20,667 nucleotides of DNA from a virus. Positions 2,199-20,667 of the stretch are shown here, piece by piece. Under the pieces are notes generated by a model. The model did no database searches and was not told the origin of the DNA. It saw only the letters and a program-made list of their open reading frames with translations. Where the stretch lies: positions 3,834 to 24,500 of the IMG/VR virus record IMGVR_UViG_3300029428_000026; one strand, given 5' to 3'. The translations under genes were made by a program, and so were the position numbers. The stretch's first letter is position 1; each line of letters opens with the position of its first letter.

Positions 2199-2303
2199 AA
2201 AATCTGTATATGTGAGAGGGTCAGATTTGTCAATGGGCCCAGAAAGGAATGAACAAACAGAGTGCTTGATTTGCTAGCTACTTGTCCTCTAGAGTAGACC
2301 TGC

Positions 2304-2819
2304 AGGAAAAAGAAGCAATCACCTACCGCCAACAAGAAAATAGGACGGCCCAGCCTCTATACGGAGGCATTAGCCGACGAGATAGCCTCCCGTTTAGCCA
2401 ACGGGGAAACGATGAAGTCCATTTGCTCGGACGATCACATGCCGGAGGTTTTAACTGTCTGGAGATGGAGGCACGAACGGGAAGAGTTTTGTAAACTCAT
2501 TCAACGCGCGCGGGAAGCGCAGTCAGAAGCCATGCTCGACGAGTGTCAGTCTTTGTCAGATGCCGCTGCCCAGGTTGCCCTCGACCCCGAATGCGGATCC
2601 GCCTCCGTCGCTGCCAAGAAGCTCGCCATTGAAACGCGGCTGAAAGTTGCCGCCCGTTTTGCCCCCGAGAAATTCGGCGACCGAGTCCGGCAGGATGTAG
2701 CGGGCGTTCCCGGCGCTCCATTGGAACGCAAAATCACCCTGGACCCCGAGCAGCTTGCCCAGCTCCGGGAAGACGAGAAAACCGCGCTGGAAACCATTGC
2801 CGGCAAACTCCACCCTTAA
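2304..2819 (+). CDS. terS: Terminase small subunit. Proposed AGG start at 2304; the first canonical start is ATG 2412.
   Basis: The frame is open from 2298. GRPSLYTEALADEIASRLANGETMKSICSDDHMPEV..W, the typical TerS HTH N-terminus, is encoded at 2343-2411, upstream of ATG 2412. There is no in-frame ATG/GTG/TTG in 2298-2411. C-terminal ...RFAPEKFGDR is typical of the family. Confidence 0.85.
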   Translation, partial: RKKKQSPTANKKIGRPSLYTEALADEIASRLANGETMKSICSDDHMPEVLTVWRWRHEREEFCKLIQRAREAQSEAMLDECQSLSDAAAQVALDPECGSASVAAKKLAIETRLKVAARFAPEKFGDRVRQDVAGVPGAPLERKITLDPEQLAQLREDEKTALETIAGKLHP

Positions 2820-2825
2820 TCGAGC

Positions 2826-4199
2826 AGGAACCATCTCCCCGTCAGCTTCTTCCTCCGTCACATTCTCGGACTCGATCCTTATCCCTGGCAAATCGAGGCC
2901 ATCAAGGCATTGCTTCTTGGAAAGGTGAGGCTGGGAGGTCGAAGCGTGGCCATGGTTGCTCCGAACGGATCGGGAAAGACGAGCCTATCCATTGCGCCCG
3001 CAATCCTGTGTTTCCTTACCTATTTTCCTCGGGGTCAGGTGCCAGTCACGTCATCATCATGGATGCAGGTAGAAAAACAGCTCTTTCCCGCGCTTCGCCG
3101 CTATATGGATAACCCTTTCTTTGACGGCTGGACATTCAACAAAACCGAAATCCGCACGCCGGAAGGAGGATTTGCCGTGGGATTCTCAACCGACAACGCG
3201 GGACGCGCAGAAGGGTGGCATCCGAAAATCTCGCCCGACGTGGATCCCGTCTTTTACGTCCTGGACGAAGCCAAGACCATTCCCGACTCCATCTTCACCG
3301 CTGTTTCCCGCTGCACGCTCTTCAACGCGTTCATCACCTCGTCGCCGGGTGCCGATTCCGGAACCTTTTACGACTGCTTCCACAAAAATTCATCCCTCTA
3401 CTACAAAATCCGCGTTAAATACGAGGATTGCCCGCACATCGAAATCAACGATCCAGGCAAGGCCGAACGCCTGAAAAAAGAATACGGCGAACAGTCCTCC
3501 TTCTACCGCTCGGCCATCCTCGGCGAATTCACGGACCTTGACGGGCAATCCGTCATTTCCCGCCGCGCCATCATGGAGCTGCTCAACAACCCGCCTCCCT
3601 TTTTGGACACCGGGGAGACCTGCGGCGGCTTTGACTTCGCCGCCGGGGGTGATGAGAATGTCTTCGCGGCCGGACAGGGCAACCGTTTTTTCATCGCCGA
3701 CCACTGGGCCGACCCAGACACTGTAGGAGCGCGCGGACGTTTCCGCCGAAAGGCCGCCGAACTCGGCATCTCTGCCGACCGCATCTTTGCCGACGGCGAC
3801 GGACTGGGGCTTCCCATCATTGACGACTTCCGGGCTGAGGGTTTCCCCGTGCACTCCTACCGGGGAGGCTTCCCGGCAGATGACACACAAGCCTTTGTCA
3901 ACCTCCGCGCCCAAGCATGGAGGGCACTAGCCCGAGCCATCGAAGAAAAAGAGCTCATTCTCGACATCGACGAGGATACCGTTGAGCAACTGGTCGCCCC
4001 CCGCCTCCAGACGGACGCGATTGGGCGCGTCAAAATCGAGAGCAAGGAGGACATGGCAAAGCGGGGCGTCCGCTCTCCAGACCGTGCTGACGCGCTCGTC
4101 ATGGCCTGGCACGCGCGCCGGCACAGCGGACTTGTCCGGGAGCTTGGGACTTGGTATGCCAGACATCCGGCACAAAAACGCGCCATTGGCAGATATTAG
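2826..4199 (+). CDS. terL: Terminase large subunit. Proposed AGG start at 2826; the ORF track starts at TTG 2910.
   Basis: Walker A is VAPNGSGKTS. The conserved N-terminal LGLDPYPWQIEAIKAL is encoded at 2865-2909, upstream of TTG 2910. There is no in-frame ATG/GTG/TTG between the TerS stop (2817-2819) and 2910, and none in any frame across roughly 2806-2880. Confidence 0.9.
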   Translation, partial: RNHLPVSFFLRHILGLDPYPWQIEAIKALLLGKVRLGGRSVAMVAPNGSGKTSLSIAPAILCFLTYFPRGQVPVTSSSWMQVEKQLFPALRRYMDNPFFDGWTFNKTEIRTPEGGFAVGFSTDNAGRAEGWHPKISPDVDPVFYVLDEAKTIPDSIFTAVSRCTLFNAFITSSPGADSGTFYDCFHKNSSLYYKIRVKYEDCPHIEINDPGKAERLKKEYGEQSSFYRSAILGEFTDLDGQSVISRRAIMELLNNPPPFLDTGETCGGFDFAAGGDENVFAAGQGNRFFIADHWADPDTVGARGRFRRKAAELGISADRIFADGDGLGLPIIDDFRAEGFPVHSYRGGFPADDTQAFVNLRAQAWRALARAIEEKELILDIDEDTVEQLVAPRLQTDAIGRVKIESKEDMAKRGVRSPDRADALVMAWHARRHSGLVRELGTWYARHPAQKRAIGRY

Positions 4200-4201
4200 G
4201 G

Positions 4202-4242
4202 TTGACAATATATCAACATATCTATATGTGTTGATTTATATT
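4202..4242 (+). promoter_or_regulatory. Promoter-like AT-rich block with an operator-like inverted repeat, immediately upstream of the tRNA
   Basis: One candidate is TTGACA (4202-4207) + 17 nt + TATGTG (4225-4230). An alternative is TCAACA (4213-4218) + 18 nt + TATATT (4237-4242). Inverted repeat ATCAACATAT (4212-4221) / ATGTGTTGAT (4226-4235) matches 9/10. Confidence 0.45.
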
Positions 4243-4246
4243 CAAT

Positions 4247-4320
4247 CGCAGGGTAGTGAAACGGTATCATATGAGGTTCCTGTCCTCATGTCGGAGGTCC
4301 AACTCCTCCCCCTGCAACCA
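4247..4320 (+). tRNA. tRNA with anticodon CCT (decodes AGG), an initiator-type acceptor stem (C1xA72) and an encoded CCA
   Basis: Hand-folded cloverleaf. Acceptor CGCAGGG/CCCTGCA; U8 A9; D stem GTGA/TCAT; D loop AACGGTA. Anticodon stem TGAGG/CCTCA; loop TT-CCT-GT; variable loop TGTC. T stem GGAGG/CCTCC; T loop TCCAACT; discriminator A; CCA. Atypical points are C at position 55 and the 1:72 mismatch. Confidence 0.8.
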
Positions 4321-4343
4321 ACCTTTTCTTTTCCTCCCGCCGC

Positions 4344-5708
4344 AGGTTTAACGCCGTCCGAAATATCCTCAACGCCCCGAAGCTGGTCGCCCAACAGGAG
4401 ACCAGAATCAAGGAGCTGGAAACAGACCTCGCCCGGCAAGCCTTGACGGACCGGAGCCGCACTCCTGGCCGCCCTCAATGGTTTGAATACTGGGACCCTC
4501 TTCAGGGCGCCGGCTTGCAAACACTTATCGATGCACGCAACGAAGCCAGACGCGGCGCCTTTGCGCGGCAAATGCTCATCTGGGACGAGGTTATCTACTC
4601 GGACGGACTTCTGGGCATGCTCTACTCCCGGTTGATTGAAAGCGTTTCCATGCAGGGCTGGAAGATTGACGCCGCGGACGACAGCCCGGAAGCCCAGCAG
4701 CAGAAAAACGCCCTGGAAGAATTCTACAACTCCGTCAACGGACTTCAGCAGTCCTTCGGGCATCTGGCCTCCGCTCTGTTCTACGGCTACGCCCACCTCC
4801 AATATATTGAGGACGCCTGGGGCCGGAGGTTTGAATTCATTCCCCAGCGTTACTGGGTGCGGCCCGGGGAACTTAATGAGTGGCAATTTAACCCCCACTG
4901 TTATATCGGCGTCGATACCGGGGAAAGTGTGGAAGACGAAACTCTCGTCGTGATGGAGCACCGTTACCCCATCCTGTTCCCTGCTTCCCGCGCATCCTTT
5001 GAGCGCAACCACGCCAAGATGATCTGGGACAACCACATGGACCGTTACGGCTCCGCCCCGGCTATTATCACAGCCCCCAAGGAGGCAAGCGCCGCTGTTA
5101 TGGACGCACTTGAGCGCGCCTGCGAAGAGCTCAAGTCTGGCGCATCCGTCGTCCTGCCTCCCGGCTGTACAGCAGAACCTCTCAAGGCATCCTCCATCAA
5201 CGAAAACTACTTCCTATCCCGCATCAACATGGCCGACAAGGATCAGGTGCGGTTTGTGATGGCAGGAACCTTGACTGTTCTGAATGAATCGGGCTCCGGC
5301 ACGCTGGCCGGGTCTGCCCATACGGACAGCTGGAACTCGGTGGTCTCCGCCGTGTGCTCCAAGGTAGCGGAAGCTTTTAACGCCTCCATCAGCCCGCTGG
5401 TGCTGAGAGACGGCGAACCGCTGGCCCGCCTCCAAATCACCTTTGACACCGTTCAGACGCCGCTGCAGAAGGCCGAGGAAATTGCCACTCTTGCGGATGG
5501 AGGCGTCCGTCCCGAGAAAACCGAAATCGAAGAAAAGATCGGCATGTCCATCGAAGACGCGAAGGCAGCCGATCCCGCAGCGGCTGCCGTCAACCGGGAA
5601 CCGGAAGGCACATACATCCCCGCCGACGCTTACGAGCAGCTGCAGCAGCTCATTTATACCGGGCTCATGAAAGGATTTAGCGATGATCAGTACCAAACAA
5701 ATCAATGA
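4344..5708 (+). CDS. Portal protein, Mu gp29/DUF935-like. Proposed AGG start at 4344; the canonical alternative is TTG 4443.
   Basis: Resembles the Mu gp29 N-terminal region (..LQTLIDARNEARRGAF..DEVIYSDGLLG..). The frame is open upstream and encodes the plausible coiled coil MFNAVRNILNAPKLVAQQETRIKELETDLARQA. Confidence 0.85.
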   Translation, partial: RFNAVRNILNAPKLVAQQETRIKELETDLARQALTDRSRTPGRPQWFEYWDPLQGAGLQTLIDARNEARRGAFARQMLIWDEVIYSDGLLGMLYSRLIESVSMQGWKIDAADDSPEAQQQKNALEEFYNSVNGLQQSFGHLASALFYGYAHLQYIEDAWGRRFEFIPQRYWVRPGELNEWQFNPHCYIGVDTGESVEDETLVVMEHRYPILFPASRASFERNHAKMIWDNHMDRYGSAPAIITAPKEASAAVMDALERACEELKSGASVVLPPGCTAEPLKASSINENYFLSRINMADKDQVRFVMAGTLTVLNESGSGTLAGSAHTDSWNSVVSAVCSKVAEAFNASISPLVLRDGEPLARLQITFDTVQTPLQKAEEIATLADGGVRPEKTEIEEKIGMSIEDAKAADPAAAAVNREPEGTYIPADAYEQLQQLIYTGLMKGFSDDQYQTNQ

Positions 5709-6804
5709 CCTGTCCAATCCCGCCAACGGCTGGTTCCACGTCGAGAAAAGCGGAGATCATGAGGTCGACTACGGCGAGGGGCCTGCGGTGCTCCGCATAG
5801 ACGAGCAGGCGATCAAGTCCATGGTGGATGAATTCAACTCCCGCACCTTTGACGGGCCCGGCATGCTCATTGACGGCGACCACTTGAGCCATGACCTTTC
5901 ACGCGACACTCGCGCTCTCGGATGGCTCAAGCGGCTGGACACCTACCGCGATCCTTCCGGCGCGTTGGAGTTGTACGGCTTCATCGAATGGACGCCACGC
6001 GGGCAGCAAATGCTGGCCGACAAAGAATATACGCAATCCTCCACTGAATACGGAGAGGGCATGACGTTCGAGGGCGGCATTTACCGTCCCGCCAAGCTGA
6101 CAGGCTTCGCCCTGACCAACCGTCCCCGAATTAAGGGGAAGCGCCCTCTGGTCAACCGACAGACTTCCCCCGCCTCCACGGAGACCGGGGGCGAACAACA
6201 AAGCCCCGAACAGGGGGAAAACAACCCAGAAACCAATATGGAAAACGACGATAGAGAATATCCGTCCAAGGAAATGGACAAGGCCCAGCGGGCCCTGTTT
6301 GATTCCCTGCTTGACAAGCTGGATGTCGAATTTGACGGCACCGACGACATGAGCAGGGACATCCTCGGACGCCTCGATGAACTGCTCTCGCTGGAAAAGC
6401 GGGAGAAAGACCACGTGAACGCCGAAGTGGACGACGCCGTCAGCACGTATGAAAACGAGCTGGACGAGGAAGAGCGCAAGGAATTCACGGAAGAACGCCG
6501 GGAAGAGCTGAAAAACTCTCTCCGGGAAAGTCCGGCCGCACTGGGCGCCTTTGTCAAGGCTCTCAATCGGTCCGCGAAGTCAAAGCCGCCGCATGACGTT
6601 GTTGACGAAAGCCGCCGAAATCCAGCTGGAAGAACGTCCTTGAACCGCCGCGCTACCCAGGCGCCGCCCAATCCGTTCCGCAAGAAGGAATCCATCGACG
6701 GATTCCAGAACCGCGTCGACGAATTAATGAAGGGCGGCATGAAGCGGTACGACGCCTTCCAGAAAGCCACCGAAGAAGGCTACATTGTAACCTCCGAACG
6801 ATAA
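5683..6804 (+). CDS. Head maturation protease fused to a scaffold region (Mu gpI/gpZ-like)
   Basis: The N-terminal ~160 aa resemble Mu-like prophage protein I (..GWFHV..DHE..ID..A..SMV..FN). The C-terminal half is acidic coiled coil. ATG with AAGGA upstream; the gene overlaps the portal 3' end. Confidence 0.8.
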   Translation: MISTKQINDLSNPANGWFHVEKSGDHEVDYGEGPAVLRIDEQAIKSMVDEFNSRTFDGPGMLIDGDHLSHDLSRDTRALGWLKRLDTYRDPSGALELYGFIEWTPRGQQMLADKEYTQSSTEYGEGMTFEGGIYRPAKLTGFALTNRPRIKGKRPLVNRQTSPASTETGGEQQSPEQGENNPETNMENDDREYPSKEMDKAQRALFDSLLDKLDVEFDGTDDMSRDILGRLDELLSLEKREKDHVNAEVDDAVSTYENELDEEERKEFTEERREELKNSLRESPAALGAFVKALNRSAKSKPPHDVVDESRRNPAGRTSLNRRATQAPPNPFRKKESIDGFQNRVDELMKGGMKRYDAFQKATEEGYIVTSER

Positions 6805-6824
6805 CCCCAACCTGATACAAACCA

Positions 6825-7290: not shown

Positions 7291-8214
7291 AGGGCTACTC
7301 CATTTTGCTCAGCCGTCCAGTTCACCGATGTCCTGACCGCCTACTCAGCCGGCTCCGGGAACACCGAAGAGAACTCCATTATCAGCCGCATCGCGCCGAT
7401 CGTCCCGGTTTACGACCTCAATTTCCAGTACAAGGTCTGGGACACGGAATCTGCCTTTACGGTCCAGCCGATCCAGGTGGGACCGGGCGAACCTCCCCGC
7501 CAGACCGTCCTGCGCGGCAGGAACGAAACCGACACCCTTCAGGGGTACGGCTTAACCTTGCCGATTCCGGACGCCTTGCTGGGCGTCAACCGCGAAAAGG
7601 CGCAGGCTATCACCCTGGCGGAATACAAGCTCATCGAATCACAGTTTGTGACCTCGTATGAATATGAACGCGCCAAGCTCATCACCAGCCAGTTGCCTGC
7701 CGCAGCCGGTTACGGGGACTGGGCCAACGAACAGAAGAATCCGCTGACGGATCTGGATAATGCCATCCTGTCCATCAATGCGGCGACTGGACACATGCCT
7801 AACACCATCGTCTTTGGCATCAACGCCTGGCAGCTCCTGCGAGCCAACCCCATTGCCAGACAGGTGGTGTCATTCAACAGTGTCGGCCTCTTCAACGAAG
7901 ACCTGCTCCGCAATGCGCTGATTCGGCCTATCAGGGATATTTACATCGCAGCCATGCCCTACCGCGACGCTTCCGGCGACGCCAAGACCATCATGGAGAA
8001 CGAAGTCTATGTCCTGTACAAGGAAGACTCCCCGACGCAGTTCGACGCCTCTGCCATCAAGACGTTTGGTTTGTCCGGCAAGCTCCGCCGCGAAGTCATC
8101 ACGGAATACAAGCCGACGCCCGCTTTGACGCTGGTAACCAACCGCGTCTACTCGCTGACCAAGCTGACCAACCCGTCCGCCATCGTCCGCATCGACGCGA
8201 CGGCCACGGCTTAA
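7291..8214 (+). CDS. Major capsid protein. Proposed AGG start at 7291; the ORF track starts at GTG 7477.
   Basis: A 307-aa product at the capsid position. The frame is open from 7276 and encodes protein-like MATPFCSAVQFTDVLTAYSAGSGNTEENSIISRIAPIVPVYDLNFQYKVWD.. upstream of GTG 7477. There is no in-frame ATG/GTG/TTG in that stretch. Confidence 0.85.
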   Translation, partial: RATPFCSAVQFTDVLTAYSAGSGNTEENSIISRIAPIVPVYDLNFQYKVWDTESAFTVQPIQVGPGEPPRQTVLRGRNETDTLQGYGLTLPIPDALLGVNREKAQAITLAEYKLIESQFVTSYEYERAKLITSQLPAAAGYGDWANEQKNPLTDLDNAILSINAATGHMPNTIVFGINAWQLLRANPIARQVVSFNSVGLFNEDLLRNALIRPIRDIYIAAMPYRDASGDAKTIMENEVYVLYKEDSPTQFDASAIKTFGLSGKLRREVITEYKPTPALTLVTNRVYSLTKLTNPSAIVRIDATATA

Positions 8215-11394: not shown

Positions 11395-11409
11395 ACCCAT
11401 TCAAGCATC

Positions 11410-12057
11410 AGGCCTAATACTTACGACCCTACTTACAGCAATCGCAATGTGACTCCGCAGATTACGGGCGTCCTGGCGATTTTTCTCCCTGACGGCATCA
11501 AGGTGACCGAGGAAGGCGGCGCCTCCTACGTTACCGGACCTTATCAGTTCCCGGAGCCTCCTACTGCGCCTCCCGTCGATCCGACGGCAGGCCCCGCATT
11601 CCCCTGGGTGAGCTTTGGCTTGCTGGGTGCGTTCCAATCCGTAGCTACGCAGGTGGAAGGAGAAGTCACCCGCTTCTATGGCGGTCCTCTTGGTTACCGC
11701 GTCCAGCGCAAGAATACCACCACTGGGAAGCGCATGACTTTCACGACGCCGGACATGTCCCCGGAATACTTCCAGCTCTCTTTTGCGCTGGGCGGGGCCC
11801 CGGCAAACGGAAAGGAAGCCGTTGCTATCGGGCATGGCGGCGACAACAAAATCGAAGGTTACCTGCAGCTGTGGTATCAGAACGATATTGGCGAGATATT
11901 TCTTACCTACATCGGGCATGGCGCCTTGCGTCTCTTGCAGGACCCGGAACACACAACCGCGGTGGCGTCCGCGCAGTTTGAATTTGAGATGGATTACAAG
12001 GGTCAGTACCAGGCCACGCCGTCCAATATTCAGGATGTGACGACGCCCGCTTCCTGA
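11410..12057 (+). CDS. Putative major tail (tube) protein. Proposed AGG start at 11410; the canonical alternative is GTG 11449.
   Basis: A ~215-aa beta-rich protein at the tube position, followed by a strong terminator. In-frame AGG lies 5 codons after the upstream stop, in the context ATTCAAGCATCAGG. Confidence 0.6.
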
Positions 12058-12110: not shown

Positions 12111-14231
12111 AGGCAACAGGCAGGCAAATATGATATACGGACCGTCACGGGACTCAACCAGTCACTGGTCGTGCGCGTGGTGGATTTCCAGGGAGATCCC
12201 GTCGATATGGGCGGCGTCACCCTGCGCGGAGCCGTTCGCCTCAAGACGGGTATTGCCGAGTTCGGCTTTTCCCGTGACGACGAGGGCAACGGCGTGATTT
12301 CGTGGGCCTCGGTACCCGCGGGCATGTGGTCCTACGATGTCTTCATGGATGACGGCAACGAGGAAAGCCCGCTTCTCTATGGATGCTTTGTTTCCTCAGG
12401 CCGGGTGACGCCGGACTTGCCGGACGAGCAGCAGGCGGTAGCGGGCGCGGTCGTCGTGCAGCTGCCGGAAGGAAGCGGATGCGTGCAGGTGGTGCTTGAT
12501 AATGCGTCAAGCGCCGCCTGGTACGCGGAGCAGGCCAAGAAGTACGCCGAGAATTTCAATCTTTCGGTGGACCGGGTCACTACCGGCGAGCCTGGCACTC
12601 CTGCCGCAGCGGAAGCCGTGAAAGGCTCGGAAGCGGGCTCTTATCTGTTGTCGTTTACCATCCCCAAAGGAGACGCCGGTCCCGAAGGCCCACCAGGCCC
12701 GCAGGGGGAACCGGGCGAAACCGGCCCCGAAGGCCCTCAGGGTCCCAGGGGCGACGCAGGACCTCAAGGTCCTCAGGGAGCGACCGGAGAACAGGGACCA
12801 AGAGGCGACATTGGAGAAACCGGACCGCAGGGTCCTGCCGGCCCGCAAGGCCCCGAGGGGCCGGAGGGTCCCCAAGGACCCCGTGGCGAGAAAGGAGATA
12901 CCGGGGATGTTAATCCGGACGGGTCTTATAACTGGACGCAGCCGCAGACCTACGACGCCACGATCACCGCAATCGAAGGAGTCCGTGTGCCGCTGCCCGC
13001 CACAGGGCAGAATGCCATTTCCTATGAGGGAATGATAACCATGACGGCTGCCGGCCAATGGAGCCGCACCAACTATTTTCTGGAATCCGTCATTCCGTCA
13101 TGGGTGACCGCCTTGGTGGAAGCCCAGTCGTTGAACACAAGCTACGCAATTGCTACCGCTAACGCCTCCCTGAAGAAGGGAGTATTTAATAACGACTTGT
13201 GCGATATGGTATTAACCATGACGGCGGCCGGGGGTGTTTCTGTTATCGGCAAATCCACGGGATCATGGAAATTTGCCAATTACATGGGCAACAATAGAAA
13301 TAACGAATATGCTGCCGCTTGCGCCTGGCGGATACTTGGCTCCGACAAGGTGTCGGTTCTCTTGGGCAGCACTGCCCAGGGGTACGCTACGACTGCCGAT
13401 CCGCTGGCGTCCTGCTATTCACATCCTGTGCACTGGGTGGATTATGCCTGGGATAATGCAAATTACAGGTATCCGCAAAACAATACAGTCAATGGAGCGA
13501 GAGGGGGCGACAATGTGCCGGCGTATCAGATCACTACCTACCCTATGGGGTATCTGGGGAGCAATAAGTCGGCCTTGATAAGGGGGACGTTTTACGGACC
13601 CCTCAAGGTAGATTCCCATTATGTTTGGGCATTGGCTCCGGCTTTTACCTACGTCTCCGCGGCCATGACGCCACCCAACCCCGATGACCAGGAGATTTAC
13701 AATCGCTGGGCTTTGTTTGTGGACAAGCAATATGTAATGGATATGGCTTCCTCCTTTTGGGGCGCCGGCAACACAGCATGCCTTACAACCAAATTCAAGG
13801 CGCACGAAGTCAGCGGGACTTATCAGGCGGGCCTCCGGATGGGAGGAATGAGGATAGACAATGCACCCTCACTGGGCATAACCAACTCCTGGGTCCTCAT
13901 GAAGGACACGGTAATGGAGGGCGTGACACCTAAACCAGTTCCAGAAGTAACGGCTTCTGCTCAGGAAGTTCCGGCCTCTGGCGGCGAGGTGACATTGACG
14001 GCGTCTTCCACCCTCTCCGAGGCTATCTATGTGCTGAACGATACCATGTGCGGACATGACCCCGCCGCTGTGTGGTGCACGCAATCCTCTGAAGAAATAG
14101 GGTCCGGCGGCGGCCAGGTTGTCCTGACGCTGGCGGCAAACACGACTGGACAACCGCGGCAGGTGTGGGCGTTTGTCGGCCACCATTACGCCGAGGCCGC
14201 CGTTGTAGAAATCAACCAATTAGCGCAATAA
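12111..14231 (+). CDS. Collagen-repeat tail fibre with a BACON/Ig-like C-terminal domain. Proposed AGG start at 12111; the canonical alternative is GTG 12171.
   Basis: Contains 27 uninterrupted G-X-Y triplets. A fibre-type motif, [10 protein letters not shown], precedes them. The C-terminus (13947-14228) fits the BACON-like pattern ..[35 protein letters not shown]. Confidence 0.85.
12669..12911 (+). repeat. Collagen-like G-X-Y triplet repeat (27 triplets) inside the fibre gene
   Basis: [81 protein letters not shown]. Confidence 0.95.
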
Positions 14232-15098: not shown

Positions 15099-15100
15099 CC

Positions 15101-15418: not shown

Positions 15419-15949
15419 AGGAAAATAGCCATTGATATAGGCCATGCCAACAACACCGGAGCCCGTGGAAACAGGCTTGAAGAACACGCCGTAGCAGCGA
15501 CGATTGCGGAACGCCTCGCGCCTATGCTCAGAAAGCTGGGCGCCCAGGTGGACGTAATTGACTTTCCGGCCCAGAGCAACACGGACGACCTGAACGCCAC
15601 CATCAAGGCCGCCAACGAAGGCGGCTACGACTTCGGGATTTCCCTGCATTGTGACTCATCGGATAATGTGCAAGCTCACGGCGCCCATGTGTGCTTCTAT
15701 CCCGGGAGCGTTAAGGGAAGCCGGCTTGCCATGTGCATCGCGGAACCTCTTGCCCGGCTGCTCCCAGGACGGGACTGCACGGTGTTGGCCCGTCCGGGGC
15801 TGGCCGTCCTGAAAAGGACGCGCTGCCCGTGGGTGCTGTGCGAATGCGGCTTTATCACCAATCCTGAAAATGCCGCCCTTATGAAGGACCATCCCGAAGC
15901 CATTGCGGAAGCCATTGCGGAAGGAGTGAAGGCCTATTCCAAGCTGTAG
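15419..15949 (+). CDS. N-acetylmuramoyl-L-alanine amidase (Amidase_3) endolysin. Proposed AGG start at 15419; the ORF track starts at ATG 15524.
   Basis: KIAIDIGHANNTGARGNRLEEH.., which includes the first zinc ligands, is encoded at 15422-15523, upstream of ATG 15524. There is no in-frame ATG/GTG/TTG after the stop at 15404-15406. AAGGAG (15406-15411) sits 7 nt before AGG 15419. Confidence 0.88.
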   Translation, partial: RKIAIDIGHANNTGARGNRLEEHAVAATIAERLAPMLRKLGAQVDVIDFPAQSNTDDLNATIKAANEGGYDFGISLHCDSSDNVQAHGAHVCFYPGSVKGSRLAMCIAEPLARLLPGRDCTVLARPGLAVLKRTRCPWVLCECGFITNPENAALMKDHPEAIAEAIAEGVKAYSKL

Positions 15950-15955
15950 ACGATC

Positions 15956-17179
15956 ATGATCTACGAGGCCCCATACTCCGCATGGTACGTTTCCGGAGCC
16001 GGAAACACGCTCCAACTCCTCAACCTCTGGGATGCCACGCCGGAGCCTCCCCGGTTCGGCGGAGACATAGAAGTCTTTGAAACGTCCCTGGTGGACGGCA
16101 CGAGGGCTTTTGCGGAAGGATTGGGGTCTGCCGTAGAACACCGCACCTTTGCCTTTTACCGCTGGTTTAAGGACTACGAAGAAATGGCCAGGTATCAGGA
16201 AAACCTGGCTGTCTGGATGGCAACCAACCAGAACGGCACTCTGTACATGCAGTTTGCCGACCAGCCTCAATGGAGATTCACGTCCGTCCTTGCCGGCTAC
16301 CAATTTGAAACGGAGAACTTCATTCCTCCTCCGTCGCCGGAAGACGGTTATTTGTGTCTGCTGGTATCCATCAACATGACGCTCACGGACCGGGTTCCCG
16401 ACAATTCAGCCTGGGTGTTCTCCGTGACTCCTTCCTCGGTTTCCGTCCCGGCTGCCGGCGGACAATATGCGTTCTCCGTCGTCTCCTACTTCAACCCGGG
16501 CGAAATCGGGCAGGGCTGGAAAGCCTTTGAGAACGACGGCATCTCCATCTCCAACATCATCAACGGCAACAATGGCTCCTTCCGGGTTACAGTGCCTCCC
16601 AACGAAACTACGGAAGAAAAAAGCATTTATCTGACAGTTTCCCAGGACGGAACCGGAATCGCTCCTCTCATTGAGATCACCCAGGCGGCATCCACGCCCC
16701 AGGAGAAAACGGTGGGCTCTCCCGTCTTCCTGGAAGGGGATCCTGCCAAGATTGCCGCCTTGGGAACGTTTAACTGGCGGCAATACCGGATGAAGTGGGG
16801 AGAACAGGTAGACGGTGATCCGCCGCCGGCAGCCTCCATCAAATCCGTCACCGTGGCCCGCGGGAGCACCAACAACATCAGCACTGCCCTTTCGCTGTAC
16901 GTCCTCAATGAGGATGGGTCCACCACAACGCTGCTGGCTACCAGCAACGCCGCGGTTAATGACGCCGCCAGCCAGCAGGCGACATTCACCTTTCCGACGC
17001 CGCCCAAAGTGGAAGCCGGGATGCAGCTCATCTTCCAGCCCGGCGCCGTCGTATACACCAAAATTGAGAATATCGCGGCCTACGATTGGGGCGGCCTTGC
17101 CTATCGGCCTTATCCGGCCGCAATCACCACGCCTGCCGTGATGCCGGCCATGTCGCTGGACGTCGAATACATCGGATAA
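15956..17179 (+). CDS. Virion structural protein with a central BACON/Ig-like domain and a C-terminal putative binding domain
   Basis: The 16412-16693 region encodes WVFSVTPSSVSVPAAGGQYAFSVVS...SFRVTVPPNETTEEKSIYLTVSQDG..IEITQAA. ATG start. Confidence 0.7.
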   Translation: MIYEAPYSAWYVSGAGNTLQLLNLWDATPEPPRFGGDIEVFETSLVDGTRAFAEGLGSAVEHRTFAFYRWFKDYEEMARYQENLAVWMATNQNGTLYMQFADQPQWRFTSVLAGYQFETENFIPPPSPEDGYLCLLVSINMTLTDRVPDNSAWVFSVTPSSVSVPAAGGQYAFSVVSYFNPGEIGQGWKAFENDGISISNIINGNNGSFRVTVPPNETTEEKSIYLTVSQDGTGIAPLIEITQAASTPQEKTVGSPVFLEGDPAKIAALGTFNWRQYRMKWGEQVDGDPPPAASIKSVTVARGSTNNISTALSLYVLNEDGSTTTLLATSNAAVNDAASQQATFTFPTPPKVEAGMQLIFQPGAVVYTKIENIAAYDWGGLAYRPYPAAITTPAVMPAMSLDVEYIG

Positions 17180-17206
17180 CAACACCTTTTCAACATACCA
17201 CCAATC

Positions 17207-17497
17207 ATGACTGACCAATCCACTCAACCTGAAAACGGCATGGAACGGCTTTTCGGAGAATTTGCCGAAGCCTGCCTCAAGAACCCCTCCCTGGACCAGG
17301 CGACGCGAGCCTTGCGGGAAAGCGTCTTTGCCGCTGCCGGACAAGCCGGCGTCAACCCCTCCGAAGCCTTCGGCATCATCTTCCGGGATATGATGATGCT
17401 TGAATACTTCCAAAAACGCGTGGACGACGCCCGCGCCAGCCTCGCGGACGGGAAACTTCCTGCTTTCGCCATCGAAGAAGTCAACACTCAACGATAA
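17207..17497 (+). CDS. Tail assembly chaperone-like protein (assigned by position)
   Basis: A 96-aa helical protein immediately upstream of the tape measure. I found no slippery heptamer. Confidence 0.5.
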   Translation: MTDQSTQPENGMERLFGEFAEACLKNPSLDQATRALRESVFAAAGQAGVNPSEAFGIIFRDMMMLEYFQKRVDDARASLADGKLPAFAIEEVNTQR

Positions 17498-17515
17498 CCC
17501 CTTATCAATTCCACC

Positions 17516-19402
17516 ATGGCTACCAAGAAAGAAATCGAAATCAAGCTCAAGTCCACGCTGGACGGAAAAGGCGTGGAAGAAGCAAAGCAGAAGATTGACT
17601 CCCTGAATAAATCCACAGACCAGCTCGACAAAGGCAGTCAAAAGGCAACCAAGAGCATCAAGAACATGGGGCAGGGGATGCTGCAGGTTGCCTACTTCAT
17701 GGATGACGTCCAATATGGCATCAAGGGCATCCTGAACAATATTCCGGGCCTTGTAATAGGCTTCGGCGGCGGGGCGGGCCTGGCCGGCGCTCTCTCCCTT
17801 GCCACGCTTGCAGGCGCGAAGCTCTACGAGTGGCTTTCCGATAGTGCGGACAAGACAGACGATCTTGCCAAAAAAATGAAGGAGCAGAGCAAAGAGGTTG
17901 CCGAAGCCTATCGTCAGTCAATCCGGGAAAGCTATCAGGCCTTGCAGGAATTCAACAAGGAAGAACGCACCAAGACCGTCAATGAAGAGTATCAAAACTA
18001 TGTAAAGGGCATTACCCGGGAATTTGAATATCAGACGGAAGAGCTTGAAAAGCAAATTCGCCTGAGACGAGAGGAAGCGGCCCGTCAGAAGGGAATTGAT
18101 ACACGTCAGGCAGAGCTTGACCGCGTCAATTTGGAAGTGGACTACCAAGAAGGAAGAATCTCCAAGAGGCAACGCGATTACGGCCTGATGATGGTTGATC
18201 AGAATCTGGACCAGAAAATCCGCCAGAGTGATTTAGGCGTGGAGCAGGCTAATTATATGGATATTGGAAAACAGCTTGCGGAGGCAGTCAAAGCCCGAGA
18301 TGCTGCGGAAGCTCATGCTTTTGATATGCAGTTTAAACAAGGGAACCTTCTTTCTCCTCAAAATATTCTTGGACTTTTACAGCAGCAAGAACGTGCTCAA
18401 CGGAGGATCGACACTGCAGAAAGTCAACTTCCAGATTTACGCGGGGAAATATGGGAGAAAAATAAAGAGTATAACGCGGCTTTGAGACAAACTGGTGGTT
18501 ATGAAAATTCAAACTCCATACAGGCGAAAAAAGAAATTGATGATTTAATTGCGAAGCAGGAGAGGCTTGTTGAATTAATCAAAACAGCGAGGGAAGAGGC
18601 TAATCAGGCAAACGATCAATTGGGATCCCTTCAGGCTGTGCTGAGAGAAGGCGGCGTAAATATTGAACTAGACTATGGACAAGGATCAGATGTGAATAGT
18701 CGTTTCAAGCAAGCCTCAACTGCGGTAGAAGAGTTTAAAAAAAATACGGATGCTGCGAAAAAACAATTTGATGTTTTAAGGGAGAAAGCTGGTTCATTGG
18801 GTGATGCGATGGCTTCCGCTGAGGCGTCCATCAAAAATATGGAGCAAACCGATGCTCTTCAAAATCAAATAGACGCCGGCAAGGTTAAATCATTTAACTT
18901 GCAAAGAGACAGGGAAGAAGCAGAGGAAGCCCGAAGAAATGAAGAAAAAATAAAGAAGGCTCGTGAGCAGGCCGAAAAGGAGGCTCAAAAGCAGACTGCC
19001 GAGAGGCAGCAGGCAATGTTCCGCGGCATTACTCTTGAAGGAGTTCCCGAGCATCCTACCGCCCAGCAACGCCCCCGGATCGCAGCTGCCCGCGAAGCTT
19101 TGAATGCAGGGAAGAAACGCATTGCAGAAAGCATTTCGGCAACAGATACGGAAATCGACCCCAGCGAGCTTCAAGGCGCGTTTGACGTTATGGAAAACGC
19201 ATTGAGAGAAAGTGGACAATACACAAAAAAATTAATGGATTATTTGAAAACCATAGCAACAGCACAGGCCGCGAATGTCAATGCTGTGCAAGTGGATACA
19301 AAAAAATATGTAGATGCTAAATTCGAGGAAATCTTGAAAATAGCGCAGAAGAGCAACGGAAGATTGCAAACAGGGATAAACAGGCTTGCCGGAGGCCATT
19401 AA
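17516..19402 (+). CDS. Tail tape measure protein
   Basis: A 628-aa protein, mostly Lys/Glu/Gln-rich coiled coil, with a Gly-rich hydrophobic segment GLVIGFGGGAGLAGALSLATLAGA. It sits at the tape-measure position. Confidence 0.8.
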   Translation: MATKKEIEIKLKSTLDGKGVEEAKQKIDSLNKSTDQLDKGSQKATKSIKNMGQGMLQVAYFMDDVQYGIKGILNNIPGLVIGFGGGAGLAGALSLATLAGAKLYEWLSDSADKTDDLAKKMKEQSKEVAEAYRQSIRESYQALQEFNKEERTKTVNEEYQNYVKGITREFEYQTEELEKQIRLRREEAARQKGIDTRQAELDRVNLEVDYQEGRISKRQRDYGLMMVDQNLDQKIRQSDLGVEQANYMDIGKQLAEAVKARDAAEAHAFDMQFKQGNLLSPQNILGLLQQQERAQRRIDTAESQLPDLRGEIWEKNKEYNAALRQTGGYENSNSIQAKKEIDDLIAKQERLVELIKTAREEANQANDQLGSLQAVLREGGVNIELDYGQGSDVNSRFKQASTAVEEFKKNTDAAKKQFDVLREKAGSLGDAMASAEASIKNMEQTDALQNQIDAGKVKSFNLQRDREEAEEARRNEEKIKKAREQAEKEAQKQTAERQQAMFRGITLEGVPEHPTAQQRPRIAAAREALNAGKKRIAESISATDTEIDPSELQGAFDVMENALRESGQYTKKLMDYLKTIATAQAANVNAVQVDTKKYVDAKFEEILKIAQKSNGRLQTGINRLAGGH

Positions 19403-19448
19403 CAGCTTTTAGACTTGCACCCACGCCAGTTTATAGCACCATACCACT

Positions 19449-20030
19449 ATGGCTAATTATTACGTTGCTTCCAACTCAAACAATGCCGAGGGCCCCTACT
19501 CTTTTGAAGAACTTGAGGCCTTATACAAGGAAGGGGAAATCTTATCAGAAACACTTGTTTTCCCTGAAGGCGGTCAAGAGTGGATGCCATTTGGAAGGGT
19601 TTATCATCTGACCAAAAACACTAATAGAAAAGCAGAAAAAAAAGAAACGGAGCGCAAACCAAAGAAGAGCTTTATTGAAGTTCTCTTAGATGAGTCAGAA
19701 AAAAGAAAAGCAGAAAAAAAAGAAACGGAGCGCAAACCAAAGAAGAGTTTTATTGAATGCTCTCTTAGAGATTCCAGAAAAAATCCTTCTTGGAAAGAAA
19801 TCCAAGAACTGAACGATCAAGAGCCTCTAAAAATCACAATAGAGGGGATATTCCGTGTTGTTGGCGTAATAGCTTTACTTGCTGGGATTGTGCTGTTTTA
19901 CTCTACCGCAGATGATGGGCAACAGGCCTTATGTTTCATTTACCTGATTTCTGGGGCTTTCTCTTGCCTCCTGTGTTTTTGGTTTGCGAAAGTGCTGACG
20001 TTGCTTCAGCAGATTGCCGACAAAAAATAA
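19449..20030 (+). CDS. GYF_2 (DUF4339)-like domain membrane protein with an internal 26-aa tandem duplication; moron candidate
   Basis: N-terminal YYVASNSNNAEGPYSFEELEALYKEGEILSETLVFPEGGQEWMPFGRVYHL. Duplicated RKAEKKETERKPKKSFIE. C-terminal hydrophobic region. About 35% GC. Confidence 0.75.
   Translation: MANYYVASNSNNAEGPYSFEELEALYKEGEILSETLVFPEGGQEWMPFGRVYHLTKNTNRKAEKKETERKPKKSFIEVLLDESEKRKAEKKETERKPKKSFIECSLRDSRKNPSWKEIQELNDQEPLKITIEGIFRVVGVIALLAGIVLFYSTADDGQQALCFIYLISGAFSCLLCFWFAKVLTLLQQIADKK
19626..19781 (+). repeat. 78-bp tandem duplication (2 copies) inside the GYF-domain gene
   Basis: The 54-nt cores at 19626-19679 and 19704-19757 differ at one position (19670 C vs 19748 T). The 3' parts of the units have diverged. 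Confidence 0.9.
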
Positions 20031-20057
20031 ATATCAACCTAACCATATTCAAGCAGC

Positions 20058-20667
20058 AGGAACCATAACATTACCATAGATGACTTGCTGGCTCTCAAGC
20101 CATCAAGCCTTACGCACGATCAACAGAGCTTCTCCACGTCCACCATTACGGCAGTTTACCCCGTCAGGACGCTTGGAGAAACTTTACCGTACAAGCAATT
20201 CGACACCGTCACCATCTCCCAAAACGGGCAAGTCATCCTAGTGGGGCTGGTGTCCAATATTGAAAAAGTATACAGCGGCAGCCAGCGGTCCTGGAGGATT
20301 GTTTTTTCCGACCCCTGGTATTACCTCGCTAATTGCTATGCTTTGGAAAATGGATGGCAGCCGACGTTTGGGCTTTTCCCCCGTAAAGGCGTAGAGGGTA
20401 TTATTCCCAAGGTCAACCTGAGCGGCGCTTTGTCCAGCGTGCTTGACATGGCAAAGCACCACCCAGCCAGCTATGAGCTACGCATCAGAGACGACAAGCA
20501 GCTGATACCGTGGAATGCATCCTGCGATACTCTTCAAAGTCTGCTGCAGTCCATCCGGCGCTGGTCTCCGCGTATGGTCAGTTATTATGACTACACGGGA
20601 GAACGGCCCAAGCTCATCATCACGGACTATGACTCCCTTGAACCTATTTCCCTGCCGCTGCAACCCT
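20058..20667 (+). CDS. Distal tail/baseplate-type structural protein, 3'-truncated by the window edge. Proposed AGG start at 20058; the canonical alternative is TTG 20085.
   Basis: The frame is open from 20043 to the window end, so it is absent from the ORF track for lack of a stop. The sequence is protein-like (..VILVGLVSNIEKVYSGSQRSWRIVFSDPWYYL..). The two minus-strand ORFs listed here are shadows. Confidence 0.7.

Follow-up and report, generated by a model that had tools for sequence, protein, structure and literature searches.

In crAss-like and Lak phages, suppressor tRNAs recode stop codons in late genes. Such recoding acts in elongation and termination, relies on suppressor determinants and reassigns the stop codon everywhere. 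Near-cognate bacterial starts, among them GUG, UUG, the AUU of infC and the GTC of sigR, are read by the normal initiator through a tolerated mismatch, and weak starts such as the AUU of infC serve regulation. Streptomyces sigR provides the example of GTC as a natural start codon (PMC5472188). Phages also carry tRNA-Met(CAU) genes, as in Komagataeibacter phage phiKX1, Streptomyces phage Wakanda and Caulobacter phage CcrSC, which keep the CAU anticodon and serve AUG starts. In engineered orthogonal E. coli initiators, which are man-made metY derivatives, an initiator body with a changed anticodon is combined with complementary starts on the target genes while the internal meaning of the codon is kept. 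The first-pass annotation of the locus described here had pointed out that anticodon-mutant initiators work at complementary codons in E. coli; this holds for the very combination at issue, as the engineered i-tRNA(CCU)/AGG pair functions and ranked first among 12 orthogonal initiator pairs in almost all strains examined (bioRxiv 10.64898/2026.04.16.719103).

We analysed a window of 20,667 nt from an Akkermansia prophage (IMGVR_UViG_3300029428_000026, positions 3,834-24,500), where AGG together with an initiator-type tRNA(CCU) looks like a natural private start codon in a phage. No earlier description of a natural private-start-codon system of this AGG/initiator-tRNA(CCU) kind was found in the literature. 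AGG stands as the apparent start of eight packaging, virion and lysis genes (terS, terL, portal, major capsid, two tail-region genes, fibre and Amidase_3 endolysin), and a 74-nt tRNA gene sits between terL and portal. The features are as follows.

2304..2819, + strand: terS, AGG start with C at -1; matches Sf6_terminase and phrog_1482
2826..4199, + strand: terL, AGG start with C at -1; matches phrog_2
4202..4230, + strand: promoter-like site read from sequence, TTGACA (4202-4207), 17 nt, TATGTG (4225-4230)
4247..4320, + strand: tRNA with CCU anticodon and initiator-type acceptor end; ARAGORN, and Rfam tRNA at 51.2 bits
4344..5708, + strand: portal, AGG start with C at -1, 23 nt past the tRNA 3' end; matches Portal_Mu
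7291..8214, + strand: major capsid, AGG start with A at -1; matches phrog_1005
11410..12057, + strand: gene without a family match (tail tube by position only), AGG start with C at -1
12111..14231, + strand: collagen-repeat tail fibre, AGG start with C at -1; matches Collagen and a tail fibre PHROG
15419..15949, + strand: Amidase_3 endolysin, AGG start with C at -1, Shine-Dalgarno AAGGAG 7 nt upstream
20058..20667, + strand: gene without a family match, running past the window end, AGG start with C at -1, frame opening 5 codons upstream

Like the engineered pairs, the prophage appears to join an initiator body with a changed anticodon to complementary starts and to keep the codon's internal meaning; unlike them it is natural, phage-encoded, placed in a structural operon and serves defined late genes, and its tRNA body is divergent (U11:A24, UCC T loop, G37). 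As in suppressor recoding, a phage tRNA would alter codon reading, the genes that need it are chiefly late ones for structure and lysis, and late synthesis would need a phage translation component, but the AGG system would act in initiation only, leave the meaning of internal AGG intact and need initiator determinants. Stop recoding itself does not fit, as the anticodon CCU matches no stop codon and the late ORFs have no in-frame stops. With near-cognate starts the AGGs share a non-AUG triplet, sometimes a regulatory one, but AGG differs from AUG in the middle base and has a dedicated tRNA. The phage tRNA-Met(CAU) genes have the same acceptor end (C1xA72, G2:C71, C3:G70, A73, CCA); in the AGG system position 35, and elsewhere other anticodon positions, has changed along with the target starts. 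AGG is very probably read as a start by the phage initiator-type tRNA(CCU), with AGG elsewhere not recoded; this core of the original proposal came through each of the computational checks suggested with it.

The eight AGG codons are present at 2304, 2826, 4344, 7291, 11410, 12111, 15419 and 20058, as the first-pass annotation had listed them, and N-termini at these positions are backed by homology. For two of its labels, 'tube' for the gene at 11410 and 'distal tail' for that at 20058, no family model gives support, and gene position is their sole basis; family-model searches with the 11410 gene gave no match. The reading frame opens 2-5 codons 5' of the AGG, except for 4344, where the 23 codons ahead of it overlap the tRNA gene, and for 12111, with 41 codons, and the nearest downstream ATG, GTG or TTG lies 9-62 codons past the AGG across the eight genes. 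In terS, for example, the AGG comes 2 codons after the frame opens and 36 codons ahead of the first ATG, and the fibre frame has no canonical start codon from its opening (11988) to 12171. All late ORFs run unbroken from AGG to stop codon.

These genes could in principle start at the downstream ATG, GTG or TTG as publicly annotated, with the tRNA an ordinary elongator tRNA-Arg(CCU) for a rare codon. ARAGORN does label it tRNA-Arg, its D stem is of elongator type, and gene callers give a shortened capsid (245/278 aa), portal (352-421 aa) and terS (135 aa); across public gene calls the portal ranges over 352-493 aa. Truncation would, however, cut into conserved domains, taking away among others the first 35 residues of Amidase_3. 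The domain models begin at the AGG: position 1 of the Amidase_3 profile is residue 3 of the endolysin, and the capsid phrog_1005, terS Sf6_terminase and Portal_Mu models start within the segment that is lost with a canonical start. In addition, the stretches left untranslated on this reading show coding-type evolution in the AGG frame. Between the AGG and the first canonical codon, substitutions among relatives are concentrated at third codon positions, the variable sites at first, second and third positions numbering 8, 8 and 24 of 35 in terS (to the first ATG), 10, 3 and 24 of 27 in terL, 12, 6 and 27 of 32 in portal, and 14, 14 and 46 of 61 in capsid (to the first canonical start). By this pattern of substitution, the stretches from AGG to canonical start are evolving as coding sequence and the ORFs are under purifying selection. 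The elongator reading also leaves unexplained that the Met of homologues falls exactly at the AGG position, that C1xA72 is fixed though adjoining pairs co-vary, and that the start AGGs are never replaced by synonymous Arg codons; we consider it extremely unlikely.

The last of these points follows from the relatives' alignments, in which the start AGGs are matched by AGG 208 times, by ATG 9 times and by another Arg codon 0 times, leaving ATG as the sole alternative. By comparison, 18 internal AGGs align to AGG 135, CGG 104, CGC 52, AGA 42 and CGT 34 times. Internal AGG thus behaves as Arg, swapping freely with other Arg codons, which bears out the earlier statement that the codon is not recoded. 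The crude chance check suggested there, for an AGG within 6 codons after a stop, has a high background (0.149) and gives only P=2e-4 for 6/8 genes. AGG is nevertheless the sole codon common to all eight start windows, and in 5/6 genes its position coincides exactly with that of the start codon in tRNA-less relatives. It is from position (shared codon, exact alignment, invariance), and not from the post-stop chance test, that the strong evidence comes.

Conservation of the individual starts was followed in about 50 related Akkermansia prophage loci, from separate assemblies of several projects including a complete genome and a phage-deposited record, which keep the AGGs while the flanking DNA varies. 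AGG is kept in 19/19 relatives for terS (ATG or GTG in tRNA-less relatives), in 38/39 for terL, in 40/40 for portal, where it aligns exactly with the TTG start of the tRNA-less lineage C, and in 40/40 for capsid, whose homologues P0001, P0005 and P0047 have a Met start at the same position. The 11410 gene and the fibre each have AGG in 32/32 relatives, in both cases aligned with the lineage C ATG, exactly so for the former. In terL, an ATG lies within 2 codons of the aligned position in L035, L046, L042/L086, L087 and L096. The endolysin starts with AGG in 10 and ATG in 9 close relatives, and with ATG in lineage C and L087. For the 20058 gene, which has the weakest support among the eight, AGG is kept in L001 (ORF of 730 codons), the sole relative covering it.

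Start-codon loss is typical of pseudogenes, and the AGGs might be seen as decay mutations in a defective prophage or as a sequencing or assembly artefact. This reading has next to no probability and is refuted by the conservation: identical AGGs recur across about 50 independent assemblies, purifying selection acts on the ORFs, which are intact, and one same substitution confined to eight start codons is unlike decay. The phage itself looks functional, being deposited as a phage (CP084202.1), present inside the complete A. muciniphila genome CP048438.1 and abundant in gut metagenomes.

Presence of the tRNA follows the start codons. Each relative with AGG starts has tRNA(CCU) between terL and portal, and the tRNA is found in all 40 IMG/VR and phage relatives that span this spacer, although these are close relatives and not independent observations, with few independent gain or loss events in the family. 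Lineage A (the window, L001-L040, L045 and L298-L306) always has the tRNA, with 4-8 AGG starts; in L046 a divergent tRNA(CCU) goes with AGG at the portal and ATG at terL; the tRNA-less syntenic relatives L042-44, L086, L087 and L096 have ATG, GTG or TTG at the aligned positions. In L088 the tRNA combines the three initiator hallmarks with an 8-nt loop, AUCCCUUA (CCCU), and the terL, portal and capsid starts are GGG/GGU, neither AGG nor ATG. The co-variation check suggested with the original proposal accordingly came out in its favour: AGG starts go with the tRNA, ATG/GTG/TTG with its absence and variant starts with a variant anticodon. The set of AGG genes varies, as seen in the endolysin AGG/ATG split, in L035 (terL and capsid ATG) and in L046 (terL ATG). 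The AGGs are start positions, under start-codon-like constraint, and from lineage to lineage they vary together with the tRNA and its anticodon.

In elongators a Watson-Crick 1:72 pair goes with EF-Tu binding, and a 1:72 mismatch, G2:C71, C3:G70 and A73 are determinants for formylation and against EF-Tu. The window tRNA has the acceptor CGCAGGG...CCCUGCA-A-CCA, with a C1xA72 mismatch, G2:C71, C3:G70, A73 and an encoded CCA. Among 13 distinct lineage A and B sequences (99.6% of cells paired, 9 pairs with compensatory changes), C1 and A72 are invariant, so that the elongator 1:72 pair is absent throughout; 3:70 is always C:G, 2:71 is G:C in 12/13 and G:U in one, and A73 and CCA are constant, while the neighbouring pairs 4:69, 6:67 and 7:66 co-vary in compensatory fashion. 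The anticodon stem is CGGGG/CCCCG in most relatives, giving three consecutive G:C pairs; the window tRNA and four others have UGAGG/CCUCA, with A29:U41 and two consecutive G:C pairs by the loop, and two variants have U31.G39. Judged by sequence, the acceptor end bears the hallmarks of an initiator, not of an elongator, and the G:C-rich anticodon stem (three G:C in most relatives, two in the window) may be a further one.

Other parts of the tRNA depart from this type. All lineage A and B tRNAs have U11:A24 (D stem GUGA/UCAY; GUGA/UCAU in the window), which is of elongator type and not the bacterial-initiator A11:U24 found in the L088, L247, L307 and L324 tRNAs (GAGC/GCUC). The T loop (UCCAACU) is unusual in having UCC where UUC is expected. 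The anticodon loop UUCCUGU reads C34 C35 U36 G37, as the first-pass annotation had claimed; it has CCU in place of the CAU of tRNA-fMet and includes the C35 and U36 of tRNA-Arg(CCU). In E. coli-type systems ArgRS uses A20 as an identity element, and A37 (t6A) goes with ANN codons; here the D loop AACGGUA gives U20, and at position 37 the window has G, one subclade A and L046 U. No similarity could be detected between the window tRNA and annotated tRNA-Met genes of phages; the tRNAs of L088, L307 and L324 are about 80-86% identical to such genes.

These data allow us to propose a mechanism. The gene at 4247-4320 would encode a reprogrammed initiator tRNA in which CCU replaces CAU, with an acceptor end and anticodon stem that keep the features by which a bacterial tRNA is channelled into formylation, towards IF2 and the ribosomal P site, and away from EF-Tu. 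Its transcription probably starts from the promoter-like site after terL and makes it the leading element of a portal-head-tail transcript, from which the normal tRNA processing enzymes presumably excise it. Because ArgRS reads C35/U36, Arg is the likeliest amino acid on the tRNA. Once charged, it would pair with AGG in the 30S P site and initiate, in this strain, terS, terL, portal, capsid, two tail-region genes, fibre and endolysin, while at intragenic AGG the host elongator tRNA would go on inserting Arg. The host initiator would be inefficient at AGG, so that the AGG-start proteins would be made only with the phage tRNA present. Charging, formylation, P-site use and biological purpose are inferred.

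The pairing might extend to a fourth base. A C precedes the AGG in 7/8 genes (7291 has A), as first counted, and a 4-bp CAGG:CCUG interaction had been suggested on this basis. The count stands as such, but it does not differ significantly from that for the operon's ATG genes (7/8 vs 8/15, Fisher p=0.18), and the subclade with an A37 tRNA keeps C(-1). Other lineages do show complementarity between -1 and 37, and the pair C(-1):G37 is only suggestive.

The promoter-like site reaches from 3 nt past the end of terL to 16 nt short of the tRNA, and is overlapped by an inverted repeat ATCAACA/TGTTGAT (4212-4218 / 4229-4235). TTGACA with TATATG/TATGTG at equal spacing recurs in nearly all lineage A relatives (TTTACA in L035), and a similar site lies in the terL-portal spacer of the tRNA-less lineage C. 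A generic promoter scan, itself overall at chance level, did not list the site at 4202. We infer from its sequence that 4202..4230 may act as a promoter. Placed within the late operon and after a promoter-like site that tRNA-less relatives have as well, the tRNA is not obviously under independent control.

As to purpose, the first-pass annotation had raised both a gating of late genes that keeps them silent in the lysogen and a role when the host initiator is attacked. We tentatively prefer a translational AND-gate, in which output would be late mRNA x tRNA level; this would hold down leaky or read-through synthesis of packaging, virion and lysis proteins in the lysogen and give late expression a sharper timing. 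The position of the tRNA within the late operon, downstream of terS and terL, which in this model depend on it, counts against independent gating. The same private AGG initiator might, somewhat less probably, serve protection: late translation would persist if the host initiator were depleted or cleaved by a defence system or toxin, or would be shielded from competition, and phages with their own tRNA-fMet would later have changed its anticodon loop. Toxins of the VapC type cut initiator tRNA, and an altered anticodon loop can let a phage tRNA escape anticodon nucleases. Phage initiator-type tRNA(CAU) genes are common, and the distant terL relative L247 has one near terL with the same acceptor features (loop UUCAUGC, from which UUCCUGU of the window differs at position 35, A to C, and at position 38), which suggests that a private initiator preceded the anticodon change. 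That the tRNA is not obviously controlled apart from the late genes weakens pure gating and is likewise consistent with protection. No defence or toxin gene is linked to the AGG system in the window or its relatives, however, and protection would be partial, as AGG is used by only part of the late genes, and the early genes and many late ones still need the host initiator.

Beyond this family, the acceptor CGCAGGG/CCCUGCA occurred in 62 newly fetched IMG/VR matches, where 47 of about 56 phage tRNAs have CAU, and for CGCGGGG/CCCCGCA the figure is 78/80. Initiator-type tRNAs with other anticodons are present in unrelated low-GC phages, with CCU in L307, L329, L357 and L331 and CUU in L324, L328 and L347, and in these phages portal and major head genes begin with AGG or AAG 5-9 nt after AAGGAG-type sites. 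The anticodon/start pairs observed are thus CCU/AGG, CCC(U)/GGG-GGU and CUU/AAG, with ATG where there is no tRNA, on at least four unrelated tRNA backbones (Akkermansia lineages A and B; L088; the L307 group with L331; the L324 group). An initiator body, a non-CAU anticodon and complementary co-varying starts would place the prophage system in the class of orthogonal initiator tRNA/start-codon pairs.

This recurrence also bears on whether AGG is a deliberately very weak start, of the regulatory sort that infC has in its AUU, read by host tRNA-fMet through a second-position mismatch, the neighbouring tRNA being unrelated to initiation. Slight promiscuous initiation by the native E. coli initiator at many codons, including AGG, is cited in bioRxiv 10.64898/2026.04.16.719103. 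We regard a weak start of this kind as very unlikely, given that major capsid and portal would hang on extremely weak initiation, and that neither the matching of AGG with CCU, GGG/GGU with CCCU-loop and AAG with CUU tRNAs in unrelated phages nor the initiator-type acceptor end of these tRNAs would be explained. Start-codon reprogramming is, on present comparisons, likely to be a recurrent and unrecognised phage strategy, in which the anticodon of the phage's own initiator tRNA is changed to CCU, CUU, CCC(U), possibly ACU or UAA, and key late starts to the matching AGG, AAG or GGG, opening a private channel closed to the host initiator. If so, standard gene callers would mis-annotate such starts. 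Within the low-GC group, L307 and L357 show an ATG/AGG polymorphism at a start.

The window carries the late operon (packaging, head, tail and lysis genes) of an Akkermansia prophage, with 23 tightly packed genes on its + strand. Akkermansia phage DTMo-2021a (CP084202.1, locus L001) is 82% identical across 61% of the window by megablast. Close relatives include a locus in an A. muciniphila metagenome-assembled genome (L045), which was the only locus from a scan of genome contigs with a portal alignment, and one in the complete genome CP048438.1 (L298). The first-pass annotation placed candidate AGG start codons at eight coordinates in this operon, possibly served by a tRNA reading AGG. We found AGG at all eight, and the bases preceding them, C in seven cases and A at 7291, were also as counted there.

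Features of the late operon (coordinate of the AGG start unless a range is given, strand, description)
2304, +, terS, Sf6_terminase match
2826, +, terL, phrog_2 match
4247-4320, +, tRNA(CCU)
4344, +, portal, Portal_Mu match
7291, +, major capsid, phrog_1005 match
11410, +, product without a match in Pfam, PHROGs or NCBIfam
12111, +, fibre, collagen repeats
15419, +, endolysin, Amidase_3
20058, +, product without a match in Pfam, PHROGs or NCBIfam
Other late-operon genes, +, among them a Mu-like protease/scaffold gene

The fibre has 27 collagen-like G-X-Y triplets in one run (12669-12911), and a GYF-domain membrane protein (gene 19449-20030) contains the 17-residue peptide KAEKKETERKPKKSFIE twice (19629-19679, 19707-19757). 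A strong 14-bp hairpin between A and T runs (1649-1680), with the shape of a bidirectional terminator, separates the leftward genes (80-2198) from the rightward late operon; the left arm had no homology to phage DTMo-2021a by megablast.

In six of the eight genes the reading frame opens 2-5 codons 5' of AGG. The portal frame opens within the tRNA gene, and the fibre frame 41 codons upstream with no canonical codon between. The nearest downstream ATG, GTG or TTG lies 9-62 codons past AGG, and a canonical downstream start would cost conserved N-terminal sequence. With residues numbered from AGG, the endolysin matches the Amidase_3 profile from residue 3 onwards; its next ATG is 35 codons in, and AAGGAG stands 7 nt upstream of AGG; a Shine-Dalgarno site is missing from most genes of the operon, ATG and AGG alike. 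The endolysin reads CATGAAAATAGCC in phage DTMo-2021a, compared with CAGGAAAATAGCC in the window, and its start codon among close relatives is AGG in ten and ATG in nine. Capsid homologues have Met exactly at the AGG position (P0001, MPNNFCTAVQF; P0005, MANLFYSAVQF; P0047, MPNFCTATQF), where the window reads (AGG)ATPFCSAVQF. The chance test proposed there, on AGG placement shortly after stop codons, is weak: in the window 15% of all stop codons are followed by an AGG within six codons, giving P=2e-4 for six of the eight genes. Far stronger evidence comes from position and from comparison with relatives.

Across 40 IMG/VR relatives with portals 83-97% identical, AGG was invariant at terS (19/19), portal (40/40), capsid (40/40), 11410 (32/32) and fibre (32/32), and was kept at terL in 38 of 39, while 25-68% of the 60 positions upstream were variable. 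Counts of variable sites at codon positions one, two and three, taken from AGG to the first canonical codon, were 14, 14 and 46 of 61 in capsid, 12, 6 and 27 of 32 in portal, and 10, 3 and 24 of 27 in terL. This third-position excess indicates that the stretches after AGG are translated in the AGG frame. As the first-pass annotation held, AGG is not recoded inside genes: 18 internal AGG codons drift among Arg synonyms, aligning in relatives with AGG (135), CGG (104), CGC (52), AGA (42) and CGT (34), whereas start AGGs align solely with AGG (208) or ATG (9). AGG is thus an Arg codon within genes and a fixed nucleotide signal at the eight starts.

Public gene calls for these proteins are inconsistent or truncated (portal 352-493 aa; capsid 245, 278 or 307 aa; terS 135 aa), as is expected if the true start lies outside the callers' codon set. 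In L298 (68.6-89.5 kb of CP048438.1), and in many protein database entries, terS, terL, portal, capsid, the 11410 orthologue and fibre are truncated or mis-extended because AGG is a disallowed start. A sequencing artefact and a decaying prophage were each considered as the source of the AGGs and rejected, as were terS-terL read-through or frameshift fusions and termination-reinitiation. Quadruplet reading of CAG|G in another frame was also rejected, since the AGG frame is the ORF frame and the capsid reads AAGG.

Two tail-region genes carry TTCAAGCA[T/G]C immediately 5' of AGG (11400-11412, 20048-20060), and ATTCAAGCAC precedes AGGG of the portal of L088, a single-contig relative (about 2116-2130). 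The tail-region motif is missing before the ATG of the orthologue in the tRNA-less lineage C (described below); with two mismatches it has 6 matches in the window versus 2.2 expected. The motif TTCAAGCANCAGG, upstream of two AGG starts, was not clearly above chance with two mismatches allowed.

The only tRNA gene in the window lies in the terL-portal spacer and was called tRNA-Arg(CCT) by ARAGORN (Rfam tRNA, 51.2 bits). It reads CGCAGGG UA GUGA AACGGUA UCAU A UGAGG UUCCUGU CCUCA UGUC GGAGG UCCAACU CCUCC CCCUGCA A CCA. Its acceptor end, a C1xA72 mismatch followed by G2:C71 and C3:G70, with A73 and an encoded CCA, is nearly that of E. coli tRNA-fMet. Among 13 distinct tRNA sequences of relatives, pairing of the cloverleaf is 99.6% complete, with compensatory double changes in nine pairs, three of them acceptor pairs, while C1 and A72 are invariant. 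Given that a single A72-to-G change would close the 1:72 pair, the mismatch is under selection. Three G:C pairs in a row, as is typical of initiators, are present in the anticodon stem of most relatives, CGGGG/CCCCG; that of the window has A29:U41. Non-initiator features are U11:A24 in the D stem, UCC for UUC in the T loop, and G37. The T loop (4298-4304) reads U54-C55-C56 (UCCAACU) rather than the near-universal UUC, and L088 is similar (UCCGAGU); a normal UUC T loop occurs in another relative, L046, and in a few relatives of lineage A. Among 62 newly fetched IMG/VR matches listed for the acceptor CGCAGGG/CCCUGCA, about 56 were tRNAs, 47 of these with CAU, and for CGCGGGG/CCCCGCA 78 of 80 tRNAs had a CAU anticodon. 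This predominance of CAU in both sets identifies the acceptor end as an initiator signature.

Co-variation of the tRNA with the start codon across relatives had been proposed as a test, and it is seen: CCU accompanies AGG, CCC(U) accompanies GGG/GGU, and relatives lacking the tRNA have ATG/TTG. Independent events are few in this family, and one 6.8-kb contig represents lineage D. In lineage A (the window, L001-L040, L045 and L298-L306), every locus spanning the terL-portal spacer has the tRNA(CCU) and 4-8 AGG starts. In L035, the member that diverges most, terS, portal, 11410 and fibre start with AGG, and terL and capsid with ATG. Lineage B (L046; terL 73%, portal 64% identical) carries a diverged tRNA(CCU), in which the C1xA72 mismatch is combined with the anticodon stem CCGGG/CCCUG and the loop UUCCUUU; its portal starts at A|AGG and its terL at ATG. 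Lineage C (L042-L044, L086; terL 67%, portal 62%, capsid 84% identical, in full synteny) is without the tRNA, has a terL-portal spacer of 94 nt, and starts with ATG at terS, terL, capsid, 11410, fibre and endolysin and with TTG at portal. Its starts align exactly with the AGG of the window in five of six cases, with terL at most 2 codons off. No lineage C contigs were found in IMG/VR with its portal as query. Two other relatives, L087 and L096 (terL 62-64% identical), likewise have no tRNA and canonical starts.

Lineage D (L088; terL 64% identical) has a tRNA in the same place, CGCAGGG UA GAGC AGGGGUA GCUC G CCGGG AUCCCUUA CCCGG ... CCCUGCA ACCA, which shows each of the three initiator hallmarks; in its loop of 8 nt ARAGORN reads the anticodon 'ccct'. 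This tRNA scores 46.7 bits against Rfam tRNA, and annotated phage tRNA-Met genes match it at about 80% identity. The terL, portal and capsid genes of this contig are without canonical starts, and the aligned codons are A|GGU, A|GGG and U|GGG, respectively; the terL N-terminus aligns as GNFIPPVV against MNYVPPVY in L087. An IMG/VR scan with the 16-nt anticodon arm of L088 gave chance matches only, none of them tRNAs, and a metagenome scan for GCTCGCCGGG-8 nt-CCCGGAGG gave no further tRNA of this type, nearly all matches being coding sequence of GC-rich genomes. A 206-kb metagenome contig (L174, BNJU01005484.1, about 3814-3890) encodes an initiator-like tRNA with an 8-nt loop, CUCUAUAA versus CUCAUAA, a D stem GAGC/GCUC and an anticodon stem CCGGG/CCCGG.

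One of 72 distant relatives scanned (L247; terL of this set 37-46% identical) encodes a CAU initiator tRNA, at 7906-7980, about 600 nt past terL and immediately ahead of a gene starting with ATG. This tRNA shows C1xA72 and A11:U24, and its loop is UUCAUGC, from which the window loop UUCCUGU differs at 35 (A to C) and 38, with the unusual G37 common to both. A35C is one anticodon base change, matching one per start codon (ATG to AGG).

Among the matches listed in the acceptor-based IMG/VR scan, initiator-type non-CAU tRNAs also occur in low-GC (28-33%) phages. The loop CUCCUAA (CCU) is found in L307, L329 and L357, a CCU anticodon on a different backbone in L331, and the loop CUCUUUA (CUU) in L324, L328 and L347. 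The closest annotated relatives of these CCU and CUU tRNAs are phage tRNA-Met genes. Most genes of these phages have an AGGAG-type site and then ATG; the following have other starts.

Start regions in low-GC phages with CCU or CUU tRNAs
Portal of L307 and L357: AAGGAG, 9 nt, AGG
Major head of L307: AAGGA, 7 nt, AGG; phrog_283 positions 3-380 match residues 2-362
Regulator gene: AGG in L357, ATG in L307
ORF of L331: GGGGA, 8 nt, AGG
Portals of L324, L328 and L347: AGGTGA or AAGGAG, 5-8 nt, AAG
Major head of L347: AGGAGA, 9 nt, AAG; first canonical codon 126 codons in

Two further loci have a candidate initiator-type acceptor stem. L426 (IMGVR_UViG_3300031565_000474, 5102-5178) has anticodon ACU, and the ORF just 3' of it has no canonical start and AGT at codon 1. 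L315 (5064-5140) has anticodon UAA, with no clear cognate starts in that locus.

A fourth base pair between C(-1) and G37 (CAGG:CCUG) had also been proposed, and here co-variation gave a mixed answer. G37 accompanies C(-1) in seven of the eight window genes, but C(-1) is equally common before ATG genes (8 of 15; difference from AGG genes p=0.18). U37 occurs with A(-1) at the L046 portal, at two of three L088 starts and in the CUU group, and A37 with U(-1) at three of four starts in L307 and L331; agreement between -1 and 37 is about 50% by chance in AT-rich phages. The capsid always has A(-1), and a lineage A subclade with an A37 tRNA keeps C(-1). The additional pair is therefore possible.

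These data allow us to propose a mechanism in which tRNA(CCU) would be excised from the late transcript, charged, most likely with Arg via C35/U36 (position 20 is U, versus the A20 preferred by E. coli ArgRS), perhaps formylated, given that the acceptor determinants are intact, and used at AGG in the 30S P site. Of 12 engineered pairs in E. coli, i-tRNA(CCU)/AGG gave the largest induction in almost all strains tested, and in Nissle 1917 it surpassed AUG (bioRxiv 10.64898/2026.04.16.719103). That the engineered pair works makes the proposed mechanism feasible.

Natural bacterial initiation, to our knowledge, has been described as using a single initiator tRNA with CAU, non-AUG starts being near-cognate readings by that same tRNA. 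The literature we searched describes engineered systems and near-cognate starts; neither a natural initiator tRNA with an anticodon other than CAU nor phage genes starting at AGG or AAG came up, and most subscription journals lay outside the search, so an earlier report is possible. The portions available of papers on inducible Akkermansia prophages do not mention an AGG-start/tRNA system. If correct, the existence in nature of an initiator devoted to AGG, with apparent counterparts for AAG and GGG in other phages, would add a new level of flexibility to the genetic code, at initiation and not elongation. Phages would gain a private switch over genes for packaging, capsid and lysis. Such a system would account for systematic mis-annotation of structural genes of A. 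muciniphila prophages (A. muciniphila being a candidate therapeutic bacterium), whose capsid, portal and terminase are truncated publicly, and would offer synthetic biology evolution-optimised orthogonal initiator/start-codon pairs. It would also open to direct test the identity of the first amino acid of the proteins, its formylation, and the treatment of the pairs by IF3.

Only the late module contains AGG genes; in phage DTMo-2021a, early genes start with ATG. A positive intergenic gap precedes every AGG gene, whereas 7 of 15 ATG genes overlap the preceding gene, which suggests that AGG starts may control whole translationally coupled blocks. Late output could be the product of mRNA and tRNA levels, filtering leaky expression in the lysogen; a fully independent switch is ruled out by the co-location of the tRNA with the late genes it would serve. 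An alternative role would be to safeguard the phage when the host initiator is lost or attacked, and the wide occurrence of phage-encoded CAU initiators agrees with such protection.

A conserved promoter-like site, TTGACA-17-TATGTG, starts 3 nt past the terL stop, with the tRNA 16 nt downstream and, in relatives, 13-26 nt from the tRNA 3' end to the portal AGG. The TTGACA site was not among the hits of a generic promoter and terminator scan, whose output was no better than chance. As a similar site lies in the terL-portal spacer of the tRNA-less lineage C, it is probably the promoter of the portal operon, behind which the tRNA was inserted as the element transcribed first. An inverted repeat, ATCAACA/TGTTGAT (4212-4235), overlaps the promoter-like site 5' of the tRNA; in other relatives its place is taken by a different one, CATATC/GATATG. 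The repeat may serve as an operator or fold as an RNA hairpin within the leader of the tRNA.
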